Of a stretch of DNA of 19,312 bases, positions 4,391-4,815 are shown in pieces. Within the stretch, counting starts at the first letter, position 1. The number at the start of each line of letters is the position of its first letter. The DNA is taken from contig CAZJUB010000048.1 in assembly GCA_964549075.1 (NCBI GenBank), positions 1-19,312 on the forward strand, written 5' to 3'. The notes under the pieces are model-generated. The model was not told the DNA's origin and did not search any database. It saw only the letters and a list, made by a program, of their open reading frames with translations. This DNA is from an uncultured archaeon. GTDB taxonomy: Archaea; Asgardarchaeota; Heimdallarchaeia; Heimdallarchaeales; Heimdallarchaeaceae. The position numbers and the translations under genes are program-made.

Positions 4391-4406
4391 TTTCTTCTTT
4401 TTCTTT
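4391..4406 (+). terminator. Probable oligo-T terminator after tyrS
   Basis: tttcttctttttcttt directly follows the stop codon. Confidence 0.45.
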
Positions 4407-4419
4407 AATAGTCTTTGAC

Positions 4420-4433
4420 AAAAAAGTTCAATA
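4420..4433 (+). promoter_or_regulatory. Candidate BRE/TATA promoter for the ncRNA
   Basis: Purine-rich AAAAAAG followed by TTCAATA (4427-4433), about 25 nt upstream of the first hairpin at ~4454. The TATA match is imperfect. Confidence 0.4.
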
Positions 4434-4452
4434 CCATTCATACGATAGTAAT

Positions 4453-4672
4453 GTGCCTTTATCGAGGACTTTCTAGAGATGGCAAGAGCTAACAAGGAAA
4501 GAAAGTGCAATAAAAAGGCAAAAGACTACCAACGGGCTCCTATGGAGTAGAGTAGGACTCTACACAATGAAGTAAGGGCAACCCTGGTAGACAACAGTTG
4601 CTCCTGAGGAGCTCAACTAACTGATATGGGAAAATCCCTAAATATGATGTTTAGAGTTAACCTCAGGAGCAT
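4453..4672 (+). ncRNA. Putative three-hairpin box H/ACA pseudouridylation guide RNA
   Basis: HP1: lower stem gccttt(4455-60)/aaaggc(4514-19); pocket atcgagg / gcaa; upper stem actttct(4468-74)/agaaagt(4500-06); K-turn AGA...AAG-GAA; then AAAAGA (ANANNA). HP2: ctacca(4526-31)/tggtag(4585-90); pocket acgggc / gcaaccc; K-turn GGA...AAU-GAA; apical gtagagt/actctac; then ACAACA. HP3: tgctcctgagg(4599-4609)/cctcaggagca(4661-71) with a C/D-type K-turn CUGA(4621-24)...UGAUG(4645-49). The HP1 and HP2 pockets match recalled archaeal 23S PTC sequences. Confidence 0.8.
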
Positions 4673-4736
4673 TATTTCTGTTTTAAGATGAAAACATAAA
4701 AAATAAATAATGATTCAATAATCTTCCCGTGTTTAT

Positions 4737-4815
4737 GGGGCAGTGATCTAGCCTGGTCTATGATGCCGCTCTCACACAGCGGATGTCGCAGGTTCAAATC
4801 CTGCCTGCCCCACCA
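4737..4815 (+). tRNA. tRNA-Val (anticodon CAC), intronless, CCA encoded
   Basis: Acceptor stem GGGGCAG/CTGCCCC, D arm with G15 and GG, anticodon arm CCGCT-CTCACAC-AGCGG, T arm GCAGG-TTCAAAT-CCTGC, discriminator A plus CCA. Confidence 0.97.

Follow-up and report, generated by a model that had tools for sequence, protein, structure and literature searches.

A distant HgcG/Pab40 homolog in Heimdallarchaeia: comparative data favour the 2586 equivalent of 23S rRNA as predicted target of its middle hairpin, beside a second fit in the A-loop

Introduction

Targets in 23S rRNA have been described for the box H/ACA sRNAs of the HgcG family (Rfam RF00064), which includes Pab40, Pf7 and Afu4. Position 2588 of Pyrococcus abyssi is reported as an experimentally verified target of Pab40 motif 1 (PMC2377435), and motif 3 is described as acting in helix 69, where P. 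abyssi position 2016 lies (PMC2377435, section 26). The target of motif 2 has been disputed. An assignment of Afu4 motif 2 to the A-loop was found to break the structural rules and was rejected by Muller 2008 (PMC2377435, section 27). The sites expected to be the true ones are given there as Archaeoglobus fulgidus 2632 and Pyrococcus furiosus 2701, which correspond to P. abyssi 2678, and the equivalent of the latter is reported to be a pseudouridine in haloarchaea, fly and mouse (PMC2377435). Among the structural rules, a spacing of 14 or 15 nt between target and ACA was active, while 13 or 17 nt was inactive (Muller 2008, PMC2377435), and the upper stem is described as having 10 stacked layers up to the second G/A pair (PMC4652768). 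In eukaryotes, yeast Psi2923 lies in the A-loop of the 25S rRNA and is made by snR10 (PMC2879522).

Here we describe an Asgard relative of these RNAs, found in a window of 19,312 nt (contig CAZJUB010000048.1 of assembly GCA_964549075.1, family Heimdallarchaeaceae). A literature search of limited reach, and so weak evidence of absence, found nothing on Asgard H/ACA RNAs. The second of the three hairpins in the Heimdallarchaeial RNA brings back the dispute over motif 2, since its pocket is complementary both to the A-loop and to the 2586 equivalent.

Results

A conserved sRNA upstream of tRNA-Val

The sRNA, including both strands of the hairpin 2 pocket, lies in an intergenic gap of 340 nt between the end of an upstream ORF (4390) and a tRNA-Val(CAC) gene (4737–4815). 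Its features are collected in Table 1. Relatives of the gene neighbouring the sRNA come from MAGs named Candidatus Heimdallarchaeota. Of 24 other genomes in the same genus, 23 gave a BLAST match to the sRNA stretch, with identities down to 73%. A covariance model built from 21 same-genus sequences had hits in 29 of 30 family genomes and, at the level of the order, in 32 of 47. Two contigs from the metatranscriptomes of two studies, 190 and 167 nt long, are 95–99% identical to the sRNA and lie wholly inside it. They cover 4477–4667 only and are silent on the remaining parts; within that stretch they are a weak hint of a discrete sRNA transcript in a close relative, no proof. About 25–35 nt upstream of tRNA-Val(CAC), a conserved AAATAAATA element (window 4700–4712) is present in the 21 homologous loci reaching that part; it may be the promoter of the tRNA.

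Table 1. Features of the Heimdallarchaeial sRNA (window positions).
Feature	Position	Strand	Remarks
Whole three-hairpin box H/ACA sRNA	about 4454–4673	+	T-run 3' of the sRNA; upstream of tRNA-Val
Hairpin 1	4454–4523	+	5' guide AUCGAGG 4461–4467; 3' guide GCAA 4507–4510; ANA box 4521–4523
Hairpin 2, whole	4524–4596	+	middle hairpin of three
Hairpin 2, lower stem, 5' strand	4524–4531	+	pairs with 4585–4592; A4525/A4591 mismatch in the window; 98.4% of cells paired
Hairpin 2, 5' guide ACGGGC	4532–4537	+	invariant (27/27, 8/8 and 1/1 sequences)
Hairpin 2, upper (GA) stem, 5' strand	4538–4546	+	ends in G4545 A4546, the unbulged K-turn side
Hairpin 2, K-turn C-stem	4547–4548 with 4564–4565	+	G4547–C4565, U4548–A4564
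Hairpin 2, apical hairpin	4549–4553 with 4557–4561	+	3-nt bulge 4566–4568
Hairpin 2, upper stem, 3' strand	4569–4578	+	starts with G4569 A4570, the bulged K-turn side; one extra base, 4574 or 4575
Hairpin 2, 3' guide CAACCC	4579–4584	+	as invariant as the 5' guide
Hairpin 2, lower stem, 3' strand, and spacer base A4593	4585–4593	+	
Hairpin 2, ACA box	4594–4596	+	ACA in 26/27, ATA in 1/27; 15 nt after C4579, 14 nt after A4580
Hairpin 3	4599–4673	+	5' guide AGCUCA 4610–4615; 3' guide GUUA 4656–4659; 3/5 upper-stem pairs change on both sides

At gathering thresholds Rfam reported tRNA only. With E-value reporting, 4400–4678 matched RF00064 HgcG (Pab40) over model positions 1–276 with 50.2 bits (E 5.7e-13), short of the curated gathering cut-off of 77 bits. 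The curated threshold misses this RNA in Heimdallarchaeia. Across the phylum, none of 151 genomes exceeded the RF00064 cut-off, negatives that weigh little because the host genome itself (G000) is missed under strict filters. Nop10 (61.3 bits) and the DKCLD domain of Cbf5 (59.9 bits) were found in the host genome. Neither Gar1 nor a 16S rRNA gene was found in the host assembly, which is 89.7% complete and comprises 217 contigs.

Hairpin 2 is a box H/ACA motif with an invariant pocket

The fold of 4440–4700 has a z of -3.72, and 0 of 200 shuffles folded as well. Taken alone, hairpin 2 (4520–4600) is unremarkable in energy (z -1.28; 21 of 200 shuffles at least as stable), and its reality rests on the comparison with relatives. 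In a MAFFT alignment of 21 same-genus sequences, 94.6% of the cells are paired in the drawn structure of the whole sRNA; sliding the 3' partners lowers this to 43–55%. Changes on both sides are seen in 12 pairs. The figures are 95.1% of cells and 27 pairs for 27 model-aligned sequences, an alignment fitted to the structure being scored; pairs changed on both sides make up 6/7 of the lower stem, 3/5 of the upper stem and 3/7 of the apical part of hairpin 2.

The lower stem consists of eight layers (4524–4531/4585–4592) and is followed by the ACA box, as in archaeal box H/ACA guide motifs. The K-turn is recognised at the level of its sequence alone: G4545 A4546 stand opposite G4569 A4570, with the bulge at 4566–4568 and the C-stem next to them. 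In 6/27 sequences TA takes the place of GA on the 5' strand, and the AC at 4564–4565 is kept in 25/27, the exceptions being L146 (TC) and L147 (GC). The upper stem has 10 bases in its 3' strand and 9 in its 5' strand (4538–4546), so that 10 layers result if the extra base stacks and not otherwise. Neither guide strand shows any variation among the 27 sequences of the family, the eight loci of family f5 and the one locus of family f9, while the stems vary, which argues for selection on pairing. With its covarying lower stem, K-turn and ACA box, hairpin 2 is, as judged by sequence comparison, a genuine box H/ACA pseudouridine-guide motif. We infer the likely protein contacts from the family: L7Ae would bind the K-turn, Cbf5–Nop10 would bind the lower stem as well as the ACA box, the pocket strands would form duplexes with 23S rRNA that flank an unpaired U, and Cbf5 would isomerise that U.

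The first-pass annotation of this DNA had proposed an H/ACA pseudouridylation pocket in an Asgard genome, and this is supported, the relatives found being Heimdallarchaeota MAGs. Its pocket strands, AACGGGC (4531–4537) and GCAACCC (4578–4584), do flank the upper stem above the lower stem. Two details of the anatomy had to be revised: the conserved ACA box is the one at 4594–4596 and not the ACA at 4591–4593, and base 4578 is variable, being G in 4/27 sequences and T in 23/27.

Hairpins 1 and 3 fit the sites of Pab40 motifs 1 and 3

Hairpin 1 fits the host 23S sequence UUGC[UA]CCUCGAU (L001 4922–4936), with a canonical unpaired UA, in brackets, and L001 4928 as the target U. This U lies 58 nt upstream of the A-loop U and is, by spacing and offsets, the equivalent of P. 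abyssi 2588. Hairpin 1 has an ANA box, which is AAA in the window, with AUA or ACA found among relatives. Hairpin 3 fits UAAC[UA]UGAGCU in the helix 69 loop of the host 23S rRNA (L001 3980–3993; target U at L001 3985), again with a canonical unpaired UA. Its box position, 4671–4673, is AUU, not ACA; AUU, AUA or ACU is found in the genus, and ACA is kept in family f5 and in L146. The host 23S rRNA thus offers, as mapped by spacing, both the 2588 equivalent for motif 1 and the helix 69 site for motif 3. This fit of hairpins 1 and 3 to the canonical UN sites of Pab40 motifs 1 and 3, together with the full-length HgcG match, identifies hairpin 2 as motif 2 of a three-hairpin H/ACA sRNA, an Asgard member of the family and a distant homolog of Pab40/Pf7/Afu4 (HgcG).

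The host 23S rRNA and its numbering

The host 23S rRNA gene (G000:C65:1287–5521) spans 4235 nt, against 2987 positions of the model. Unrelated sequence follows right after GUGAGA (L001 5030), and this stretch from L001 5031 onwards suggests an intron or insertion. In the 23S rRNA of G123, about 430 nt lie between GAGCU and GGGUUUAG. E. coli positions on the host 23S rRNA are those which we take to apply, anchored by the yeast offset and by the A-loop Psi2923. By offsets, P. abyssi 2549 corresponds to yeast 2826, 2588 to 2865 and 2603 to 2880, where the position of yeast 2865 is our assumption. Yeast 2826 is equated with E. coli 2457 (PMC11077068, Table 1). By its spacing from the targets mapped below, P. 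abyssi 2647 is the 2555 equivalent. We also considered whether P. abyssi Psi2603, a guide-independent Cbf5 site, is the A-loop position; the offsets rejected this.

The host A-loop reads GGGUUGUACGCCCAUU / GGGTTGTACGCCCATT, with GGGUUG-UAC-GCCC-A-UU at L001 4980–4995. The U2554 equivalent is L001 4986, and the 2555 equivalent, L001 4987, is an A.

The hairpin 2 pocket fits two sites

All 989 U sites of the host 23S rRNA were scanned with mismatches tolerated and with spacers of 2 or 3; a scan for contiguous runs with small offsets misses both the hairpin 1 target and the 2586 site. Rank 1 went to the U2554 equivalent in the A-loop, with a score of 11 of 12 (6 bp, unpaired UAC, 4 bp, mismatch, 1 bp), and a top site as high was obtained with 16 of 2000 shuffled guides. 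Rank 2 was L001 5018 in GGGUU[UA]GACCGUU, which scored 10 of 11 (5 bp, canonical unpaired UA, 1 bp, G/A mismatch, 4–6 bp), and 25 of 2000 shuffled guides gave a second-best site as high. The distance of L001 5018 from the A-loop U, 32 nt downstream, identifies it as the 2586 equivalent, and its distance from the hairpin 1 target, 90 nt downstream, as P. abyssi 2678. No better target was found in the 16S rRNA of two relatives (best 7.5) or in 23 host tRNAs (best 9.5). The ACA is 14 nt away from the 2586 target and 15 nt away from U2554, both within the active range of 14–15 nt. Energies in the host were -15.1 kcal/mol for the A-loop versus -10.4 for 2586 with the pocket strands alone, and -16.7 versus -15.6 kcal/mol with the top of the lower stem opened. 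By complementarity, the hairpin 2 pocket fits two 23S sites and its target is ambiguous.

The main target of hairpin 2 is, on comparative grounds given below, probably the U2586 equivalent in the peptidyl-transferase centre. AACCC (4580–4584) would pair with GGGUU, leaving U and A unpaired; C4537 would pair with G, G4536 would stand opposite A, and GGCA (4532–4535) would pair with UGCC. With A4531 and C4530 included, this second part would grow to 6 bp. The ACA box would be 14 nt away, and the U of the unpaired UA is the predicted pseudouridine.

The possible but unlikely candidate is the U2554 equivalent, guided by hairpin 2 either alone or together with 2586. CAACCC (4579–4584) would pair with GGGUUG and GGGC (4534–4537) with GCCC, and UAC or UUC would stay unpaired. 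It is the best of the 989 U sites and has the strongest duplex energy. Its 15-nt spacing and the 10-base 3' strand of the upper stem match the productive 10/6/9 fold class (PMC4652768). Three bases lie between the two duplexes instead of the canonical two-base UN, and the 5' duplex has 4 bp before C4533 stands opposite an A. A UNN spacer is nevertheless described as functional for Pab19, with the 3' guide mattering most (PMC2377435), and the most 5' unpaired U is stated to be the modified one (PMC7075261, section 20). Against the A-loop, the assignment of the homologous Afu4 motif to it was rejected (PMC2377435), and an A-loop pseudouridine is not listed for P. abyssi or Sulfolobus islandicus in the available parts of PMC11077068 and PMC2377435.

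It is very unlikely that hairpin 2 guides no modification at all and is kept as a structural part of a three-hairpin RNP or as a chaperone of rRNA folding. Both candidate duplexes depart from the canonical form, and P. abyssi motif 2 is reported to have lost its 2678 target by one substitution (PMC2377435). In the Heimdallarchaeial RNA, however, none of the 12 pocket bases changes in three families whose stems do vary, and hairpin 2 forms stronger duplexes at both candidate sites than hairpins 1 and 3 do at theirs.

The 2555 equivalent is an A in the host

To our knowledge, a U at E. coli 2555 is almost universally conserved. An A at its equivalent was seen in the host, three close relatives, the two genomes of genus g10 and a single genome from family f9 (L001, L029, L033, L039, L159, L160 and L185); the other 16 pocket-bearing genomes have U. 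With A2555 in seven independent assemblies, an assembly error is unlikely.

The first-pass annotation had read the pocket as specifying the A-loop with the pseudouridine at 2555. The A-loop, at U2554, is indeed the best-scoring U site of the host 23S rRNA, but an A cannot be converted to pseudouridine, and 2555 is therefore excluded in the host; the predicted target string GGGTTGYTCGCCCGTT is likewise absent from the host genome by string search. The idea that one RNA serves two sites of the peptidyl-transferase centre survives in so far as hairpin 1 aims at another such site, and fails for hairpin 2 at 2555. Compensatory changes of guide and A-loop, which the annotation had named as a check, did not appear: the pocket is invariant while the A-loop differs at two duplex positions. 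As the 2555 assignment of Afu4 had been made and then withdrawn in the literature, the annotation had rediscovered a withdrawn assignment.

A register with base 4578 paired to U2554 and the modification at the 2555 equivalent is scarcely credible. In the window a wobble between G4578 and U2554 would be possible, and an earlier proposal for Afu4 motif 2 had named the same site (A. fulgidus 2601, corresponding to P. abyssi 2647; PMC2377435, section 27). However, G4578 is confined to the host and three close relatives, all of them with A2555; T4578 is found in the other 16 family genomes with rRNA data, and C in family f9. The target would be 16 nt from the ACA, outside the active 14–15 nt, and besides the absence of the predicted string, the A at L001 4987 is agreed on by four assemblies. 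Covariation of G4578 with A2555 was also considered. It holds in the four genomes of the window group and is broken by genus g10, which combines A2555 with T4578.

Comparative data favour the 2586 equivalent

The two sites differ in how they vary among pocket-bearing genomes. Positions 2581–2593 are identical in 23 of 23 genomes with pocket and rRNA data. The A-loop comes in variants: family f1 has U2551 and A2561, which leaves C4533 mismatched in 20 of 20 genomes, the host included, and families f5 and f9 have C2551 and G2561, which leaves A4581 mismatched. In neither case is the guide compensated, which speaks against U2554. The base preceding ACGG in the guide tracks position 2594, in favour of 2586: all 3 genomes with C2594 have G there, whereas among the 20 with U2594 there are 9 with A, 11 with U and none with G. 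Against 2586, a U stands opposite U2594 in 11 of 20 genomes of family f1.

Two further Asgard families bear on the choice. In family f8, UAACCCAG and GGUC are found with the same spacing and strand lengths. They fit CUGGGUU[UA]GACC and not the A-loop of these genomes, so that the f8 guide fits the 2586 site only. In the two genomes of family f3 with rRNA data (L165 = G040 and L166 = G035), position 2586 is a C (GGGUUCAGACC) and the A-loop is intact. CAACCC and ACGGGC of hairpin 2 are lost there, in each genome in a different way; the pocket has decayed despite the intact A-loop, a further point against U2554. The 2594 covariation and the f3 decay are one or two evolutionary events each. L169 (G070) and L170 (G047) were left out of the rRNA table on account of bacterial-looking 23S rRNA. 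The A-loop region of their 23S fragments looks bacterial, and these are likely contaminant contigs in Asgard bins.

Several observations stand against the 2586 equivalent. The A-loop ranks first and pairs more strongly in the host. G4536 faces an A and C4579 is unpaired beside the target in the 2586 duplex, yet both bases are invariant in three families, and they pair only in the A-loop model. When hairpins 1 and 3 are used as rulers for the 10-layer rule, the first base after the upper stem is C4579, again paired only in the A-loop model. The rule as such favours neither model, and the 2586-specific f8 guide has strands as long as those of hairpin 2. Compared with f8 and with the Rfam HgcG consensus, the Heimdallarchaeial type is changed at 4579, 4536 and 4585, and all three changes raise complementarity to the A-loop. 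On the other side, families f11 and f12 have A:U or G:U in place of the G:C combination 4536:4579, and an intramolecular closing pair would fit equally well. Taken together, the comparative data favour the 2586 equivalent.

Discussion

The Heimdallarchaeial sRNA places a guide of the Pab40/Pf7/Afu4 type, with conserved targets in the peptidyl-transferase centre and helix 69, in Heimdallarchaeia. The dispute over the target of motif 2, A-loop or 2586, thereby recurs in a new lineage, which adds natural tests to it: the A2555 genomes, the C2586 genomes and the A-loop variants.

It is rather improbable, but of consequence, that three substitutions in the motif 2 pocket (4579, 4536 and 4585) gave Heimdallarchaeia and one further Asgard family a dual target, U2586 and U2554. 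Were this true, the closest archaeal relatives of eukaryotes would already carry an A-loop pseudouridine of the snR10 type, and this modification, typical of eukaryotes, would predate them. Otherwise the RNA would be an ordinary ortholog with an ordinary target.

The likeness to yeast snR10 concerns the target. If the A-loop reading were right, the 3' hairpin of snR10, which makes Psi2923, would share with hairpin 2 the target nucleotide, the U2554 equivalent (PMC2879522). snR10 is a eukaryotic H/ACA snoRNA without a K-turn, and the Heimdallarchaeial A-loop pairing leaves three bases unpaired versus two.

For the preferred 2586 reading, the parallel is found in haloarchaea. We take Haloferax Psi2605 to be the same position as the 2586 equivalent. 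Stem-loop 1 of Haloferax volcanii sR-h45 is described as directing this single 23S pseudouridine with an unpaired UA (PMC7075261), as the model of hairpin 2 would. sR-h45 is a two-hairpin RNA, unlike the three-hairpin sRNA studied here, and the two are likened by target.

The closest described relatives are the HgcG RNAs Pab40, Pf7 and Afu4. Like these, the Heimdallarchaeial sRNA has three tandem H/ACA motifs with K-turns, and the 23S sites that its motifs 1 and 3 fit are the same. Motif 2 agrees with the Rfam consensus line in the core of its 3' guide, AACCC, and in the distance of 15 nt between the base before this core and the ACA. It differs in the pocket itself, which is C-AACCC-U with GGGC as opposed to u-AACCC-u with GGUC in the HgcG consensus. 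The box of hairpin 3 is degenerate in the host genus, unlike that of HgcG, and the host is an Asgard archaeon, belonging neither to Thermococcales nor to Archaeoglobus.
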